From contig CAZINP010000001.1 in NCBI GenBank assembly GCA_964540635.1, positions 9,540-73,539 on the forward strand: 64,000 bases of DNA. The letters are read 5' to 3'. Position numbers and translations under genes: made by a program. A model generated the notes under the pieces. That model was not told the origin of the DNA. It did no database searches and saw only the letters and a program-made list of their open reading frames with translations. The DNA comes from an uncultured Gammaproteobacteria bacterium (GTDB taxonomy: Bacteria > Patescibacteriota > Patescibacteriia > Buchananbacterales > UBA6539). Numbering within the stretch: the stretch's first letter is position 1; each line of letters begins with the position of its first letter. Below are positions 3,786 through 64,000 of the stretch, in pieces.

Positions 3786-5099
3786 TTAGTTAAACATTAG
3801 CCAGCCCGGCTTAAAAATTAACAACAAACCAACTGTAAATAAAATTAATCCGCCTGCCAACCTGGAATATCTGGCATATTTCGTAGTAACTCCTGTCATC
3901 TCTAATGTTATCATTGCAAGTAAAAAGACAAAAATATCATCAAGCATAAAGAAAAAAATGTACAACAAAATCAAAAAATAATACTGCCAACTTGATAAAT
4001 TATTTAAAGCCAAGACTTGAGTATAGATCGCCGGCAAACCAGCCGAACAAACCAATTCAACCAAATTTACAACAAAGGCCAAAACGATAATGCCAAAAAT
4101 CGCTAAAATAAAATTTTTTTGTAAAGCTACCGCCTTTAATTTCTTAAAAACTTTTTGACGATTCTCACTATTAGTAACCTTGCAGCCACTGTCTTTATCT
4201 ACAAAAAATGCACGCACACTGTAAGAGCCCCCGGCCAAAGCGAATAAACCAACCAACAGTCTTACCCAAAAAACAAAGCCTAAAAATAAGATAAAGTTTA
4301 GCCATGCCGACATAAACAAAAAGTAAACCGAAGCCGACGCAACAATAAAAATAATTCCCAAAGTCCACATTCGCCTCTTATCTTCCATTCCCAGAAGCAA
4401 GCTGATTAAAAACAAAAGCGTCCATAAAGCGCAAGGATTGAATCCATCCAACGATCCTATAATCACCGCCAGGATCGGCAGAGAAAATTTAATTATATTT
4501 ACTTCTCCAAATATTGGCAACTTAATTCTTTGATCAACTCCACTCTCAGCTTCCCCCAAAAAATCCAATCCAACATTATCCTCAAATGGTTTATCTAATT
4601 CTTCCACTCCAGACTGTGTCGGCGTGTTTTGCTCAACGCTATCCACTTCTACAAATCCTTCTCTTATAGCATTTTCCTGGTAAGAAATCGTTTTTACGTT
4701 AACAATCTCGGCGACTGAATCGGGACATAATTCCTTGCTGCACTCTAAAACACGCTTTGATATCGCCGATGATGTCATACCATTGGCATATCCGATGAAA
4801 TAAGTATCACCAATCACCAAAAAAGGCACTCCATTGACTCCGGCGTTTAACTTTTCAGCTACCTTTTGCAAAATTTCTATATTGTCAAAATCGTTATAGA
4901 TTTCAAATTCAAAAACGTTCAAGTTGGGATAATTTTCCTTTAACTCACTATTTATAAACACTCTTTCAGCGCTACAGTGAGGACAAGTACTACCATAGAA
5001 AAGATAAGCGTTAACCGGAAATGTTACGGCTTTAACGGGAATTAAAACCAAGAAAAAAAATAAACTGATAGAAAATAAATATTTAAATAGATGTCTCAT
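3786..5099 (-). CDS. Thioredoxin-like (CPHC) domain fused to a CcdA/DsbD-type transmembrane thiol-disulfide transporter
   Basis: The N-terminus has a signal peptide and a YGSTCPHCSAE glutaredoxin/thioredoxin-like CxxC motif. The C-terminal multi-transmembrane core carries GFNPCALW and LVCSAGLP Cys motifs like the CcdA/DsbD beta domain. Confidence 0.65.
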   Translation of the reverse strand: MRHLFKYLFSISLFFFLVLIPVKAVTFPVNAYLFYGSTCPHCSAERVFINSELKENYPNLNVFEFEIYNDFDNIEILQKVAEKLNAGVNGVPFLVIGDTYFIGYANGMTSSAISKRVLECSKELCPDSVAEIVNVKTISYQENAIREGFVEVDSVEQNTPTQSGVEELDKPFEDNVGLDFLGEAESGVDQRIKLPIFGEVNIIKFSLPILAVIIGSLDGFNPCALWTLLFLISLLLGMEDKRRMWTLGIIFIVASASVYFLFMSAWLNFILFLGFVFWVRLLVGLFALAGGSYSVRAFFVDKDSGCKVTNSENRQKVFKKLKAVALQKNFILAIFGIIVLAFVVNLVELVCSAGLPAIYTQVLALNNLSSWQYYFLILLYIFFFMLDDIFVFLLAMITLEMTGVTTKYARYSRLAGGLILFTVGLLLIFKPGWLMFN

Positions 5100-39544: not shown

Positions 39545-39621
39545 GCGCCTGTAGCTCAGTTGGTTAGAGCGCCACCCTTATAAGGTGGATGTCCCTGGTT
39601 CAAGTCCAGGCAGGCGCACCA
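39545..39621 (+). tRNA. tRNA-Ile, anticodon UAU (gene TAT)
   Basis: 77 nt cloverleaf with a 7-bp acceptor (GCGCCTG/CAGGCGC), anticodon stem CCACC/GGTGG, loop C-T-TAT-A-A and 3' CCA encoded. Confidence 0.8.
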
Positions 39622-39678: not shown

Positions 39679-39755
39679 GGGCGTATAGCTCAGTTGGTTA
39701 GAGCGTTACGTTGACATCGTAAAGGTCCATGGTTCGAGTCCATGTACGCCCACCA
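39679..39755 (+). tRNA. tRNA-Val (GAC)
   Basis: 77 nt with acceptor GGGCGTA/TACGCCC, anticodon stem TTACG/CGTAA, loop TT-GAC-AT and CCA encoded. Confidence 0.85.
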
Positions 39756-39863
39756 AAAAGCATCTCTTTTAGAGGTGTTTTTTGATTTATCATATATTTG
39801 ATTGAATTATATAAATCTTGACATTTTTACCAATATTGCATATTATAACTATATCAATATTAA

Positions 39864-40187
39864 TTGATATATATGAAACATAAATGTTGTTGCAATAAAT
39901 CGGATTTGCTGAATTTGAATAATTTGGCCGATTTCCTAAAAATTATTGCCGAACCAAACCGCTTAAAAATTTTATGCTTGCTGAAAAACGACAAGCGCTG
40001 TGTTTGTGAAATATGGCAAGCTTTAAATTTACCGCAAAATTTAATTTCAAGTCATTTAAAGATCTTGCGACAAGCCAAACTTATTGATTTTAAAAAAGAC
40101 GGTTTAAAAGTCTATTACTTTATCAATAAACAAAATATCAAAAAGCATAAATCATTATTAAATAAATTATTAAAATCATATGAATGA
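39864..40187 (+). CDS. ArsR/SmtB-family transcriptional regulator
   Basis: ArsR-type HTH (NRLKILCLLKNDKRCVCEIWQALNLPQNLISSHLKILRQAKLI). An N-terminal Cys cluster is present. Confidence 0.8.
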   Translation: MIYMKHKCCCNKSDLLNLNNLADFLKIIAEPNRLKILCLLKNDKRCVCEIWQALNLPQNLISSHLKILRQAKLIDFKKDGLKVYYFINKQNIKKHKSLLNKLLKSYE

Positions 40188-40488
40188 AAAAATTCAAAAA
40201 ATCCAAGTCTTGGGCGCCGGCTGCCCCAGCTGCAAAAAAATGTTTGAACTAACCAAACAAACCGCCCTTGAACTTGGCTTGAAAATTGAAGTTGAATATA
40301 TTACCGATATTACCGTGTTGGTTAAAATGGGTGTAATGTCCGCTCCGGCTTTGGCCATAAATGATAAATTGGTTTTTGCCGGCGCCTTGCCCAACAGTCA
40401 AAGAATAAAAGAACTGATTCAAAATTACGCCTTAAAACAAGAAGTTGAGAAGCCAAAGAGTAATTGTTCTTGCCACGGTTGTTGCTAA
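40180..40488 (+). CDS. Thioredoxin-fold 'redox-active disulfide protein 2' family protein
   Basis: IQVLGAGCPSCKKMFEL has a CxxC motif and follows the TIGR00412-like pattern. A C-terminal CSCHGCC tail is present. Confidence 0.7.
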   Translation: MNEKIQKIQVLGAGCPSCKKMFELTKQTALELGLKIEVEYITDITVLVKMGVMSAPALAINDKLVFAGALPNSQRIKELIQNYALKQEVEKPKSNCSCHGCC

Positions 40489-40495
40489 AAATTGT

Positions 40496-41467
40496 ATGGA
40501 TATTTTTTTTCCCCTTCAATCATTTGCCGATCTTTTTGTTTATAATCTTTTAGGTTTGAGCAAAGACTCCCATTTGGGCGAGGCTTTAAATTATTTTATT
40601 TATGATGTCATAAAAATAATCATCCTGCTTTTGATTGTTAATTATTTTATGGCAATTATAAGACACTATTTACCGGCCGAAAGACTGCGCAATTTTTTGG
40701 CTTCTCGGCGCTGGTTTGGATTTGACTATTTACTGGCCGCCTTATTTGGCACCATCACTCCTTTTTGTTCCTGTTCATCCATTCCCCTATTTATCGGTTT
40801 TATCAGTGCCGGCATTCCTTTGGGCGTGACTTTGTCATTCTTAATCACCTCGCCGCTGGTTAATGAGATAGCCATTGTACTTTTAATCGGATTGTTCGGC
40901 TGGAAAATTACTTTATACTATGTACTTGCCGCCATTGCTCTTGGCGTTTTGGGCGGTATGATTTTGAACAGATTAAAATTGGAAAAATACGTAGCCGAAG
41001 AGATTTGGAAAATCAAAAGTCAAAAACAAGAATTAATGATTGACAAGCTTAACCTAAAAACTTTGCTTAAAAAATTTTGGTCCGAGGGCTTTGAAATTAC
41101 CAAAAAAATAACACCTTATGTTATCTTGGGCATTGGGGCGGGTGCAGTCATACACGGTTTTGTTCCAAGCGGATTTTTTGAAAAATATCTCAATTCACAA
41201 AACTTATTAGCCGTTCCCGTGGCGGTTTTGGTGGGAGTGCCCCTGTATGCCGGCGCCGTGGGTGTAATTCCAATCGTTCAATCTCTGGTGGATAAAGGCG
41301 TGGCTTTAGGCACAGCCTTGGCTCTAATGATGGCCGTCGTCGGCCTATCGCTACCGGAAGCTTTAATTTTAAAAAAAGTAATGAAGCTGAAATTGCTTTT
41401 ATATTTTTTTGGCATCACCACCATCAATATAATTATTATCGGTTATTTATTTAACGCTTTAGCTTAA
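40496..41467 (+). CDS. DUF318/ArsP-like permease with TPFCSCSS motif
   Basis: A polytopic permease. TPFCSCSSIP is the hallmark of the COG0701/ArsP family. The start is taken at the ATG after the upstream stop. Confidence 0.7.
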   Translation: MDIFFPLQSFADLFVYNLLGLSKDSHLGEALNYFIYDVIKIIILLLIVNYFMAIIRHYLPAERLRNFLASRRWFGFDYLLAALFGTITPFCSCSSIPLFIGFISAGIPLGVTLSFLITSPLVNEIAIVLLIGLFGWKITLYYVLAAIALGVLGGMILNRLKLEKYVAEEIWKIKSQKQELMIDKLNLKTLLKKFWSEGFEITKKITPYVILGIGAGAVIHGFVPSGFFEKYLNSQNLLAVPVAVLVGVPLYAGAVGVIPIVQSLVDKGVALGTALALMMAVVGLSLPEALILKKVMKLKLLLYFFGITTINIIIIGYLFNALA

Positions 41468-41471
41468 AAAA

Positions 41472-41951
41472 ATGAAAAAAGAAATACTTATCGGCTCTGC
41501 CATTGGCACCACTTTAGTCATTATTATCGGCTTTGTTTTGATTTTACTTTCCTCTTTGGGGAATGAAGCAAAAAATAATCAAAATGATTTCGATCTTACT
41601 CAGAATCAAAACGCTCCCGCGGAAAAAATAGAAATTATTCACTTTCACGCAGCCCAGCAATGTTGGTCGTGCATTACCGTAGGCAATTATACCCTAAAAA
41701 CCATCCAAGAAAAATTTCCGGAAGAATACCAATCCGGAAAAATCACTTTCACCGATATTAACGTTGAATCACCTGAAAATAAAAATGTGGTTTTGAAATT
41801 TCGTGCCGCAGGATCATCCCTTTTTATCAATACCATTAGAGACGGTAAAGATAATATTTCCGAGGAAGTAACGGTTTGGCGTTTGGTTAATAATGAAAAA
41901 CAATTTATTGATTATTTTGAAAATAAAATTAAATCTTTATTGGGCAAATAA
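41472..41951 (+). CDS. Membrane-anchored thioredoxin-like CxxC protein
   Basis: An N-terminal transmembrane anchor is followed by a thioredoxin-like fold with a CWSC motif (HFHAAQQCWSCITVGN). Confidence 0.5.
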   Translation: MKKEILIGSAIGTTLVIIIGFVLILLSSLGNEAKNNQNDFDLTQNQNAPAEKIEIIHFHAAQQCWSCITVGNYTLKTIQEKFPEEYQSGKITFTDINVESPENKNVVLKFRAAGSSLFINTIRDGKDNISEEVTVWRLVNNEKQFIDYFENKIKSLLGK

Positions 41952-42674
41952 ATGGAAATCATTAATTTTTTAATTGATAATTACAACCTTCCGGCCTTAA
42001 GCGCCTTTTTACTTGGCATACTAACGGCCATCAGCCCTTGTCCTTTAGCAACCAATATTACAGCCATTGCCTATATTTCAAAAGAAATTAATAATACAAA
42101 AAAAATAATTCTCTCCGGGCTAACTTATACTCTGGGCCGAGCCATCACCTACACCCTTTTGGCCGTTTTATTGTTTTTCGGACTATCGTCCTTTGAAATG
42201 TCCAGACTGTTTCAAGGCTGGGGAAACAAAATCTTAGGTCCAATCTTGATTTTTATCGGCTTGGTTATGTTCGGGATAATAAAAATAAAAACAGGTAACC
42301 AAAATCAACGGCTGGAAAAAATTAAAACATGGTTGGCCCAAAAGGGTTATTTGGGTTCAATGCTTTTAGGTGGATTTTTCGCTTTGGCTTTCTGCCCCTA
42401 CAGCGCAGTTTTATTTTTTGGCGCACTTATGCCCATTGTTCTGAAATCAAACGGCGGTCTTTTACTGCCGATTGTTTTTGCCCTTGGAACCGGCTTACCT
42501 GTTATTGTTTTTGCCATTTTAATCGCTTACAGCCTGCAAAAAATGGGTAAGGTTTTCAAAGTTTTAACTGAATTGGAAAAATGGATTCGTTTTGCTATAG
42601 CTTTGATTTTTATTTTAATTGGAATTTATTATTCGCAAAATTTGTTTGATTATCTGTTGAAAATAATTTTATGA
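41952..42674 (+). CDS. ccdA: CcdA/DsbD-family cytochrome-c-biogenesis-type thiol-disulfide transporter
   Basis: Six transmembrane helices with ISPCPLATN and FCPYSAVLFFG Cys motifs. Confidence 0.8.
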   Translation: MEIINFLIDNYNLPALSAFLLGILTAISPCPLATNITAIAYISKEINNTKKIILSGLTYTLGRAITYTLLAVLLFFGLSSFEMSRLFQGWGNKILGPILIFIGLVMFGIIKIKTGNQNQRLEKIKTWLAQKGYLGSMLLGGFFALAFCPYSAVLFFGALMPIVLKSNGGLLLPIVFALGTGLPVIVFAILIAYSLQKMGKVFKVLTELEKWIRFAIALIFILIGIYYSQNLFDYLLKIIL

Positions 42675-43048
42675 ATACTAAAAAATTAATCATTGTCTGG
42701 CAACGACTTATTGTAAATGAAAAAACTGGCTTTCGCTGCGGCGCTACTGAAACCGAACTTTAAAAAGCCGTCAAACAACTTAAAAAGAAAATTAGTCCGA
42801 TGGGAATAGAGGTGATTCTAAAAAAATCAAAACTTGCACTAAAAAAATTTGAAAATAATCCGACAGAATCAAACAAAATCACAATAAATGACATACCATT
42901 GGAAAAATTAATTAATGCCAAAACCAAAACAAGCAGGTGCTGCGGCGCATGCAATGGCAATGAGTGTCGTACAATGGTAATAGACGGTCAATCTCAAGAA
43001 GTGATTAAAGCCGATGTGATAATTAAGGCGGGACTGAAAGCTTTATAG
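42671..43048 (+). pseudogene. DUF2703-like small CxxC protein interrupted by in-frame TAA at 42761-42763
   Basis: The full frame reads MNTKKLIIVWQRLIVNEKTGFRCGATETEL-*-KAVKQLKKKISPMGIEVILKK...SRCCGACNGNECRTMVIDGQ...ADVIIKAGLKAL. This matches DUF2703 (KKLxIxWQRLV...CPRCG...IEV...CC..C....CR.....G.....IPADVIIKAGL). The first Cys of CPRC is lost (GFRC). The ATG overlaps the ccdA stop (ATGA). Confidence 0.6.
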
Positions 43049-43074
43049 TTAAAATAATTTAAAAAAATAAAAAA

Positions 43075-43108
43075 GCGAGCGCTCGGCGTGAGGCTCGCCA
43101 CTGTTTTT
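43075..43108 (+). terminator. Rho-independent terminator
   Basis: The hairpin GCGAGC...GCTCGC is followed by CACTGTTTTT. Confidence 0.45.
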
Positions 43109-43128
43109 CACAAAGATCTTACCAGCCC

Positions 43129-44289
43129 CTACTCGGGCTGAATTTCAATCACTTCGCCACCGCCAAACTTGGAGTGGATTAAAACCGAAGGATTACGACC
43201 GGCTGGCGTGGGCAGAATCTTGCCGGCCACTTTTGCGGTTACACCAAACTTCACTGCCAAATGGCAGAATTGCGCAACGTCAGACTCATCAATGACAACC
43301 AGCATTCCCTGGCCGCAATTCCAGGTGTCGTAGCAGTCATTTACGGACATGCCACGCCAATCAGCGCAAAGCCGAACGATCTCCGGCGGCTCGAAAAGGT
43401 CGTCCAATATCGCCGAGAAACCCTGGGGAAAAAGAACGTCGCGGGCAAATTTGCTCTTGATTGAGCCGCCGGTAACGTGAGCAATCAAGTGCATCCTAAC
43501 CAGCGGCAGAAAGTCGGCTTCATACCAGCCGTGAAGCTTAGTCAAAAAGCAATCATACAAGAATGAGGGCACGGCAGCCGAACGAAGATGCTCCTTTGCC
43601 TCCGGCTCAATGGCCCAATTGTCGCCGAAACGCTTGGCAAAAGCTTTGCGCACAGAGCTGATGCCGTTGCTGCGAAACCCATTCTCTTGCAGAGCCACGA
43701 CAACTTGTCCGGGCGCCAAAGTGTCACCGAGAATCATTTTGTCCGGGTGGTAGGCACCGATTGCAAACCCGGACCAATTGTATTTTGCCGTAGCCGCCTC
43801 ATTGCTGGAACCAACACACACGCCAAGCTCGGCGGTTTCACCGCAAAGCATGACCATTTGGTTGTTGCCGCAAGCCACCATCAGGCCGTTAATCAACTGC
43901 CGAAAAGCCTGATTGGTTTGGTCTCCGGCTTGGCCAAGGGTGCAGACGTCCAAAACATTGCAGAAAACCAGAGGTATGCCACCCCAGCGCGTAATGTCAC
44001 CGGCCGTCATGGCCAGCACGTCTTTTCCGGAAGCAAAATGAAACCCTGCGGCATCAGAAATTATCACTTTGGTTCCGATTCCGTCCGGCGCACACGCCAA
44101 GCTACTGCCGGGCAGTAGGCCCTCAACGGTAAATCCACGAGGCCCGCGGAAGTGGCCACGAGAAAAATCATGGATCTTAACAAACGGGCTTGCCTCATAA
44201 GTTCCGCGGCAACACTTTGCCGCAAAGGCGCTAAAGCTATCGCCTTCTTTTACGTTTACACCATCCCGGGTGTAGGGATCATTGCTCAT
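43129..44289 (-). CDS. PurM-like (AIR synthase family) protein, GC-rich cassette
   Basis: PYTRDGVNV, DGIGTKV, CGETAE, SNGISSVRK, IAHVTGG and NCGQGM align to the PurM blocks. GC is about 55% in a roughly 40% GC genome. The start is taken at M28 of the track ORF. Confidence 0.7.
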   Translation of the reverse strand: MSNDPYTRDGVNVKEGDSFSAFAAKCCRGTYEASPFVKIHDFSRGHFRGPRGFTVEGLLPGSSLACAPDGIGTKVIISDAAGFHFASGKDVLAMTAGDITRWGGIPLVFCNVLDVCTLGQAGDQTNQAFRQLINGLMVACGNNQMVMLCGETAELGVCVGSSNEAATAKYNWSGFAIGAYHPDKMILGDTLAPGQVVVALQENGFRSNGISSVRKAFAKRFGDNWAIEPEAKEHLRSAAVPSFLYDCFLTKLHGWYEADFLPLVRMHLIAHVTGGSIKSKFARDVLFPQGFSAILDDLFEPPEIVRLCADWRGMSVNDCYDTWNCGQGMLVVIDESDVAQFCHLAVKFGVTAKVAGKILPTPAGRNPSVLIHSKFGGGEVIEIQPE

Positions 44290-44500
44290 TGTTTTCTCCT
44301 TTTCTGTAGTAGACAACACCGCCCACTTTTCTGGAAACAACCACCAAACGTTCTTTTTGAAGAGCCTCAATCGCTCTTTCCACCTCCTGGTGAGTACAAA
44401 AACCCAATGAGGCCGTTAGCGATCGCTTAAGAGCACAAACATTGCAGTCGCTGCTGTGCTCCAAAATCTTCAAAACTTCACCCTGTACATCCCTAGACAT
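44279..44500 (-). CDS. Small winged-helix-like protein, translationally coupled to the PurM-like gene
   Basis: 73 aa from the ATG at 44500, preceded by AAGGAAAGGAAA. The GC-rich part begins exactly here. The stop overlaps the PurM-like ATG (ATGAGCAATGA). Confidence 0.45.
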   Translation of the reverse strand: MSRDVQGEVLKILEHSSDCNVCALKRSLTASLGFCTHQEVERAIEALQKERLVVVSRKVGGVVYYRKGENNEQ

Positions 44501-62374: not shown

Positions 62375-62503
62375 GGATGCAAAGTTCCCGCGATGACCTA
62401 CTTTCCCCCGAAGGAGTATCATCGGCTCTGTGAGGCTTAACTTCTGTGTTCGGGATGGGAACAGGTGTGACCCTCACGATAGAATCACGGGAACACTGCA
62501 TCC
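62375..62503 (-). rRNA. rrf: 5S ribosomal RNA
   Basis: The minus-strand sequence GGATGCAGTG...CCCATCCCGAACACAGAAGTTAAGCC...GGGAACTTTGCATCC has a terminal helix I and a conserved loop C region. Confidence 0.85.
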
Positions 62504-62559
62504 AATTGATGTAGTGTAATTTTTAGGTAATTGATTTTTTACCCAATTCTTGTGGTTAA

Positions 62560-64000
<1,441 letters not shown>

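Follow-up and report, generated by a model that had tools for sequence, protein, structure and literature searches.

The 64,000-nt stretch of DNA analysed here (the window) carries an interrupted gene of the DUF2703 family (PF10865), in the reading frame of which a TAA codon stands at a position occupied by a sense codon in a sister sequence. This raises the question of whether the gene is dead, whether the codon is an error of the record, whether the codon is read through or otherwise recoded, or whether the part behind it survives as a protein of its own. The initial annotation had left the choice open between recent pseudogenisation, a sequencing error, and programmed readthrough or recoding. 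The evidence set out below argues that 42671–43048 is most probably a recently inactivated (pseudogenised) DUF2703 gene.

The gene (42671–43048, + strand) is composed of 125 sense codons plus a single internal stop, the TAA of codon 31 (42761–42763), and ends in TAG (43046–43048). The translation reads MNTKKLIIVWQRLIVNEKTGFRCGATETEL up to the internal stop and KAVKQLKKKISPMGIEV…KAGLKAL from there to the final stop. When the TAA is replaced by a sense residue, the translation matches PF10865, a family of thioredoxin fold, with 109.3 bits (E 1.6e-31; gathering cutoff, 23.6 bits) from residue 6 to residue 120 and over profile positions 1–119 of 120; this end-to-end match of 42671–43048 needs the TAA to be read through. 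The piece after Met44 alone scores 69.9 bits (profile positions 39–119), the stop-spanning region contributes ~39 bits of the PF10865 signal, and the frame is the same on either side of the TAA. A match that is collinear from end to end indicates that the two halves were formerly one gene and is not a chance resemblance. Thus, both the 125-aa frame collinear with the family and the TAA at codon 31, which had been described at the outset, are borne out by profile search and translation.

An uninterrupted reading frame, as expected of a functional DUF2703 member, is therefore absent from the window copy. The N-terminal motif at the start of α1 is degenerate as well: codons 20–23 (GGC TTT CGC TGC, 42728–42739, + strand) encode G-F-R-C, where the family has C-x-R-C. 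The C-terminal cysteine cluster CCGACNGNEC (42938–42967, + strand) is intact, and residues 90–101, CCGACNGNECRT, follow the family pattern C(C)-x2-C-x4-C-R-T, with both of the leading cysteines of C-C-x2-C-x4-C-R-T. Downstream of the stop, an ORF of 82 aa opens at ATG 42800 (42800–43048, + strand), and without β1, the CxRC motif and α1. The public gene call (P0001, in both NCBI and Logan) covers a remnant of 78 aa only, starting at GTG 42812.

DUF2703 has been described as a predicted family of the thioredoxin-like clan with a CXXC motif and an ars-cluster context (PMC3091736, PMC6514093), and the literature searched goes no further than this prediction. Its proteins are small, of thioredoxin fold, with C-x-R-C at the start of α1 and a second cluster, CC-x2-C-x4-C. 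We infer a role in thiol-based redox or metalloid handling. To judge the two altered codons, we used a family sample of 152 representatives of clusters at ≤50% identity, drawn from a scan of 1.84 billion proteins. The stop had been taken to replace a conserved Glu, which is not the case: the aligned column is variable among the 152 representatives (E 39, D 20, R 18, Q 16, K 8, and others); the closest intact homologs have Gly there, and the sister contig L081 has Asn. Of 129 representatives, 123 have the first motif Cys and none has Gly in its place. All 80 genome loci have this Cys too, within TCPRCG, and the search pattern used for them permitted G and F at the positions concerned. The second motif position is variable among the representatives (CPRC 41, CDRC 28, CERC 13, CQRC 9, and others). 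Hence the earlier claim that the first Cys of a CPRC motif had become Gly stands as far as the aberrant Cys-to-Gly change goes, but the motif is really C-x-R-C with a free second position. Phe at that position is absent among the 113 sampled motifs; because the position varies across the family, Phe was rejected as a sign of earlier decay. On the aligned sequences, Cys to Gly is the only aberrant change of the motif, Phe being unusual but at a tolerant position. Selenocysteine at the motif was also rejected, the codon being GGC and not TGA. The cysteines of the second cluster are conserved, C90 in 133 of 142, C94 in 127 of 140 and C99 in 123 of 134 representatives.

DUF2703 closes a tightly packed run of six genes, all on the + strand. 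A promoter-like site (TTGACA-17-TATTAT, 39818–39846) lies before arsR, which is the first gene of the cassette and encodes an ArsR/SmtB-family repressor (39864–40187; profile matches). It is followed by a small thioredoxin-like protein of the MTH895/ArsE family (40180–40488; TIGR00412, 81.4 bits, cutoff 62; Pfam Thioredoxin_3), an ArsP_1-type permease, the exact start codon of which is uncertain (40445–41467; PF03773, E 1.1e-65, positions 1–293 of 294), an arsF-family protein (41472–41951; NF040494, 94.9 bits, cutoff 60, positions 1–105 of 106), and an arsG-family transporter (41952–42674; NCBIfam equivalog NF040495, 292.6 bits, cutoff 200; Pfam DsbD_2). All five genes are open and intact, with end-to-end profile matches, and ArsG, ArsF and the MTH895/ArsE protein are encoded together, all above the NCBIfam cutoffs. 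The ATG of DUF2703 (42671–42673) overlaps the TGA of arsG (42672–42674) as ATGA. The initial annotation had noted this overlap, which is in the sequence, as one with the stop of "ccdA"; that label gives way to ArsG, the NCBIfam assignment.

Downstream, a G+C-rich, terminator-like hairpin with A/T runs on either side (43075–43098) lies between the convergent DUF2703 and purM-like genes. The predicted folding energies are −14.5 (+ strand) and −15.6 kcal/mol (− strand; z −3.2), and U runs follow. Identity to the sister contig L081 falls from 97% to 74% at this hairpin.

The same gene order is found elsewhere. The six-gene order with an intact DUF2703 occurs in three Patescibacteria-type MAGs (L005, L006 and L026), indicating that the ancestral sixth gene was functional. 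The five-gene core recurs in two metagenomic contigs (L083 and L084). DUF2703 genes are found alongside permease and thioredoxin genes at loci for metal(loid) resistance. Of 80 DUF2703 loci, 32 have an ArsP_1 permease in the vicinity and 30 have a Thioredoxin_3 protein; a plasmid of Citrobacter carries permease, thioredoxin, rhodanese and DUF2703 in this order.

The decisive evidence comes from a sister sequence. The cluster of P0001 has one further member, P0154, which is encoded on L081, a contig of 1,804 bp from an independent ENA assembly. L081 is the only close relative found, and P0154 was the only route to it: exact-protein look-ups for P0001 and ArsG found no contig, and a scan of metagenome contigs with the DUF2703 protein found no relative. 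L081 aligns to window positions 42337–44126 and is 97% identical over the 3′ end of arsG and DUF2703. Its codon 20 is TGC (TGC TTT CGC TGC, CFRC) and its codon 31 is AAT (Asn), so neither lesion of the window copy, the TAA or the Cys-to-Gly change, is present in it. L081 has instead a net 1-nt deletion in the A-rich codons 37–41, ~9 codons past codon 31, which shifts the frame; translation from its ATG runs for 45 codons into a TAG, and the gene call is again a 78-aa remnant. The TAA and Cys-to-Gly change in the window and the 1-nt deletion in L081 are therefore separate, lineage-specific disabling lesions, and, judging from the two sequences, their common ancestor presumably had an intact CFRC gene. 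The initial annotation had suggested a comparison with orthologs, and this one proved decisive, the sister lacking the stop but carrying a frameshift of its own.

The neighbouring gene shows a different pattern. In the 3′ end of arsG, the window and L081 differ by 9 synonymous and 0 nonsynonymous changes. In DUF2703, they differ by 4 synonymous and 3 nonsynonymous changes, to which the nonsense codon and the frameshift are to be added. Fisher's test of DUF2703 against arsG gives P = 0.03 with both stop-codon bases counted and P = 0.06 without them. The purely synonymous differences in arsG, set against the pattern in DUF2703, fit a relaxation of selection on DUF2703 alone. Differing lineage-specific lesions beside constrained neighbours are what is expected of a pseudogene. 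The proposal of recent pseudogenisation is thus supported by the second lesion (Cys to Gly), by L081's own frameshift and by the synonymous-only differences in arsG.

The sister sequence also bears on whether the TAA, and possibly the GGC, could be an error of sequencing, assembly or strain consensus in a gene that is really intact. The source, a contig of 240,809 bp, is evidently from a metagenome-type assembly, which leaves room for such an error. However, codon 31 differs from the sister by two base changes and codon 20 by a separate one; three separate miscalls within 35 nt with no change of frame would be unusual. In addition, consensus substitution errors are rare, and the changes here are not homopolymer indels. 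The 78-aa remnant is called in both NCBI and Logan, which implies that both records have the interruption before it, and the sister assembly has a break too, at another place. An error is therefore very unlikely.

If the codon is real, it could still be read as sense. Among the 53 long, non-overlapping ORFs in the window, 45 end in TAA, 4 in TAG and 4 in TGA; within the DUF2703 operon itself, arsF and the permease gene end in TAA. Therefore, TAA is not reassigned, and reassignment was rejected on this stop-codon usage. The use of TAA, which had been proposed as a check, was in this way examined within the window, where TAA is the ordinary terminator. A prfB-type +1 shift at CTT-TAA was rejected as well, because the homologous frame is the same before and after the TAA. 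With the frame unchanged across the TAA, only readthrough could restore the protein. The features of programmed readthrough are missing at the site: codon 31 of the sister is AAT, and a folding test on the 91 nt around and behind the stop showed no gain in stability over shuffled sequences (z +0.69), so no RNA structure was found to follow the TAA.

A broader version of this idea is that programmed recoding attenuates expression in both lineages, with low-level readthrough of the TAA in the window copy and −1 slippage on A_AAA_AAG in the sister, each yielding some full-length protein. L081 does have the heptamer A_AAA_AAG in the correct phase directly upstream of its deletion, and ribosomes slipping by −1 at this point would return to the family frame (…KQLKKEISPMGIEV…); the zero frame stops 6 codons later. 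However, 18,326 codons of ordinary genes here contain 48 in-phase A_AAA_AAR heptamers, so that the motif is common, and there is no structure after the TAA (z +0.7) or after the L081 heptamer (−3.5 versus −4.0 kcal/mol for shuffled sequences). For these reasons, −1 frameshifting in L081 was rejected. A-runs are also deletion hotspots, so the coincidence of heptamer and deletion is expected. As to the window copy, TAA is the dominant stop, the stop is absent from the sister, and a full-length product would still lack the first motif cysteine. Recoding is extremely unlikely, and the suggestion of programmed readthrough made in the initial annotation is not upheld. The sister broke the same gene in a different way, which points to ordinary gene decay and not to a new way of reading the genetic code.

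To place the lesions in the fold, we used an AlphaFold2 model of P0003, an intact homolog that is 50% identical (88-sequence alignment; pLDDT 90.8, pTM 0.82). In the model, β1 spans residues 16–25, CPRC (32–35) is at the start of α1 (33–56), β2 spans 58–67, and further strands and a C-terminal helix follow. The alignment pairs residue n of the window copy with n+12 of P0003, which positions the stop at residue 43 of the model, in the middle of α1, and has α1 ending at Met44. Translation up to the stop would yield a 30-aa N-terminal peptide made of β1 and half a helix; restarting at Met44 would leave out β1, the CxRC motif and α1. Neither piece, then, is predicted to have a complete thioredoxin fold. 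A Foldseek search of the PDB found no close solved homolog; the matches were weak (E 0.04 or worse) and mostly of thioredoxin fold, in agreement with the published fold assignment.

These features bear on the alternative that the C-terminal 82-aa module, with its ATG at 42800 and its CC-x2-C-x4-C cluster, survives by re-initiation as a small thiol- or metal(loid)-binding protein. The ORF is open with the same in-frame ATG in both sister lineages, the cysteine cluster is intact, and an AT-rich leader precedes ATG 42800, as it does for most genes here. Over the 84 codons after the lesions, the window and L081 differ by 2 nonsynonymous and 4 synonymous changes, giving a pN/pS of 0.13 (P = 0.02 against a naive neutral expectation), in a divergence much of which may predate the lesions. 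However, with no more than six substitutions, constraint that still acts cannot be told from constraint before the lesions. The fragment also lacks β1 and α1 of the thioredoxin core, according to the model, and no free-standing C-terminal domain was found among the two short members examined (L087 and L086). A Shine–Dalgarno test for the internal start was uninformative, since the motif is rare here (10 of 53 ORFs). Survival of the module in this form is very unlikely. That the locus is alive at all, either through a C-terminal module (residues 44–125) that the two sister lineages independently uncoupled from the CxRC strand-helix and keep under purifying selection, or through traces of full-length protein made by TAA readthrough in one lineage and A_AAA_AAG slippage in the other, is very unlikely too. 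Beyond the lesions, neither the window copy nor L081 shows further decay, which fits very recent inactivation and also fits a C-terminal piece that is still useful.

The course of events under recent pseudogenisation may be sketched as follows. An intact, translationally coupled DUF2703 would have closed a cassette under ArsR control, in the order arsR, arsE-like gene, ArsP_1 permease gene, arsF, arsG, DUF2703. Selection on DUF2703 would then have been relaxed in this lineage. The window copy would have lost the first motif Cys (TGC to GGC) and gained a nonsense codon in α1; the TAA of codon 31 can be reached from AAA, GAA or TAT by a single base change but from the AAT of the sister only by two. 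With the TAA in place, translation from the coupled ATG ends after 30 residues, and the DUF2703 product is probably non-functional. The sister lineage would have lost DUF2703 independently, by the 1-nt deletion in an A-run ~9 codons further on.

Other searches returned the family mostly at a distance. In 5.8 billion protein clusters, no intact close ortholog was found; there were 78-aa remnants and homologs of ≤50% identity only. The scan of genome contigs gave the 80 DUF2703 loci, with a best identity of 55%. No ArsG homolog closer than 76% was found, and the closest contig, L082, has no DUF2703 downstream. Broken DUF2703 genes occur elsewhere: one locus has two stops (L063), one has a frameshift (L035), and one has a TTA-to-TAA change at codon 4 (L086). 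N-terminally short members were considered as free-standing C-terminal domains, and this was rejected for both of those examined: L087 is a mis-called start on an intact gene, and L086 is the nonsense-interrupted gene.

The separate losses of DUF2703, with arsR, arsE, arsP, arsF and arsG intact, suggest that DUF2703 is a dispensable accessory of the resistance cassette. This dispensability is a small clue to the function of the family. For annotation, the proper label of the locus is DUF2703 pseudogene, in place of a 78-aa "DUF2703 protein", and that of the gene before it is ArsG-family transporter. Beyond annotation, the locus matters little, and it offers no evidence for recoding of TAA. The family is known and so is the type of operon; the finding is real but ordinary.

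In comparison with PF10865 members in general, the window copy shares the full-length collinear profile match, the C-terminal CC-x2-C-x4-C-R-T cluster and a neighbourhood with ArsR, ArsP_1 permease and Thioredoxin_3 genes, the latter two as in 30–32 of the 80 loci. It differs in its TAA-interrupted ORF and in the Gly at the first motif cysteine. The nearest intact Patescibacteria homologs have a Cys-rich N-terminal tail (e.g., MNKCNCQCDC…), which the window copy lacks.

Programmed recoding sites offer a second comparison. A_AAA_AAG is the −1 frameshift site of the dnaX/IS type. The window copy resembles recoded genes in having an in-frame stop within a conserved frame, and the sister resembles them in having an in-phase A_AAA_AAG at its frameshift. 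Unlike programmed sites, those in the window and the sister are not conserved, have no stimulatory structure and, as to the heptamer, involve a sequence common in ordinary genes.

Among arsenic proteins, DUF2703 may be likened to the metallochaperone ArsD, also a small thioredoxin-fold protein with clustered cysteines from ars operons. DUF2703 is reported to be fused to ArsD domains in some proteins (PMC3091736). Profile searches here gave no match to ArsD, and the link is a functional analogy from the literature.

The closest parallel for the operon is ArsEFG, described as a detoxification system for nitro-aromatic arsenicals (Chen, Zhang and Rosen 2019, Environ Sci Technol 53:6182, cited in PMC9144182). 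The cassette in the window agrees with it in encoding members of the ArsG, ArsF and MTH895/ArsE families, all scoring above the cutoffs, with arsE upstream of the arsF-arsG pair and the whole under ArsR. As described, ArsEFG comprises neither an ArsP_1 permease nor DUF2703, whereas the cassette here contains the former and originally had the latter. ArsEFG is thus the operon context of the DUF2703 gene and not the finding itself, and, going by gene content, the role of the cassette in resistance is putative.

The ars cassette and its downstream neighbor differ in how closely they match the sister contig L081 (1,804 bp). In the alignment of window positions 42337–44126 with L081 positions 1–1787, the two sequences are 97% identical through arsG, the DUF2703 gene, and the hairpin. 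Near 43100, the identity falls sharply, and within the convergent purM-like gene it is 74%. This pattern suggests that the ars cassette underwent recent exchange or recombination between genomes that have otherwise diverged. Alternatively, the drop could reflect very fast evolution of the purM-like gene itself.

The purM-like gene is an AIR-synthase-related ORF on the reverse strand (43129–44370). Its G+C content is ~52%, compared with ~36% for the surrounding genome region, and it is compositionally foreign. With just 120 bits, its match to the purM model falls short of the 236-bit cutoff. The ORF probably does not encode a canonical PurM.

The nearest intact DUF2703 homologs, at loci L004, L005, L006, L020, and L026 (start near 3944–3956) and among the proteins P0002 and P0003, carry a Cys-rich N-terminal tail, as exemplified by MNKCNCQCDCNKQ and MNTKNQCGCQGGNCEP. 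The copies in the window and L081 lack the tail and have the N-terminus MNTKKLIIVW. This looks like either an in-frame deletion in the common ancestor of the two copies or a subfamily-specific extension. Another family representative, P0082 (149 residues), starts like a low-molecular-weight phosphatase/ArsC-type protein (MKKVLFLCTENACRSQMAEG), and this N-terminus runs straight into the C-terminal two-thirds of DUF2703. Such an arrangement could come from a fusion by deletion or from a gene pair with a frameshift.

Interrupted DUF2703 genes are also found in unrelated MAGs and contigs. The gene in L086 (about 1400–1851), which adjoins cas2, has a TAA at codon 4 (TTA to TAA); the gene in L063 (2350–2664) has one TAA and one TAG; and the gene in L035 (4001–4366) has a frameshift close to the C-terminus. 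Loss of the family appears to be fairly frequent. In L081, a dnaX-type slippery heptamer, A_AAA_AAG (445–451), lies in phase right before the 1-nt deletion of the sister gene. The first A of the heptamer results from a CTT-to-CTA change in the Leu codon just before, and the heptamer is probably there by coincidence.

Earlier in the cassette, the ArsE-like thioredoxin ORF closes with a Cys-rich tail (…SNCSCHGCC). The end of this ORF overlaps the longest possible ArsP_1 permease ORF, starting at TTG 40445, by 44 nt (40445–40488); the true permease start probably lies further downstream.

The best matches of ArsG and DUF2703 bear names that indicate Patescibacteria/Parcubacteria. A 5S rRNA and the 3′ half of a 23S rRNA are located on the reverse strand at the window edge (62385–64000) and would permit a taxonomic assignment. 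Directly upstream of the ars cassette are two forward-strand tRNA genes, a tRNA-Ile with the uncommon UAU anticodon (39545–39621) and a tRNA-Val(GAC) (39679–39755). Since tRNA genes are classical insertion points of islands, these neighbors are consistent with a mobile ars cassette.
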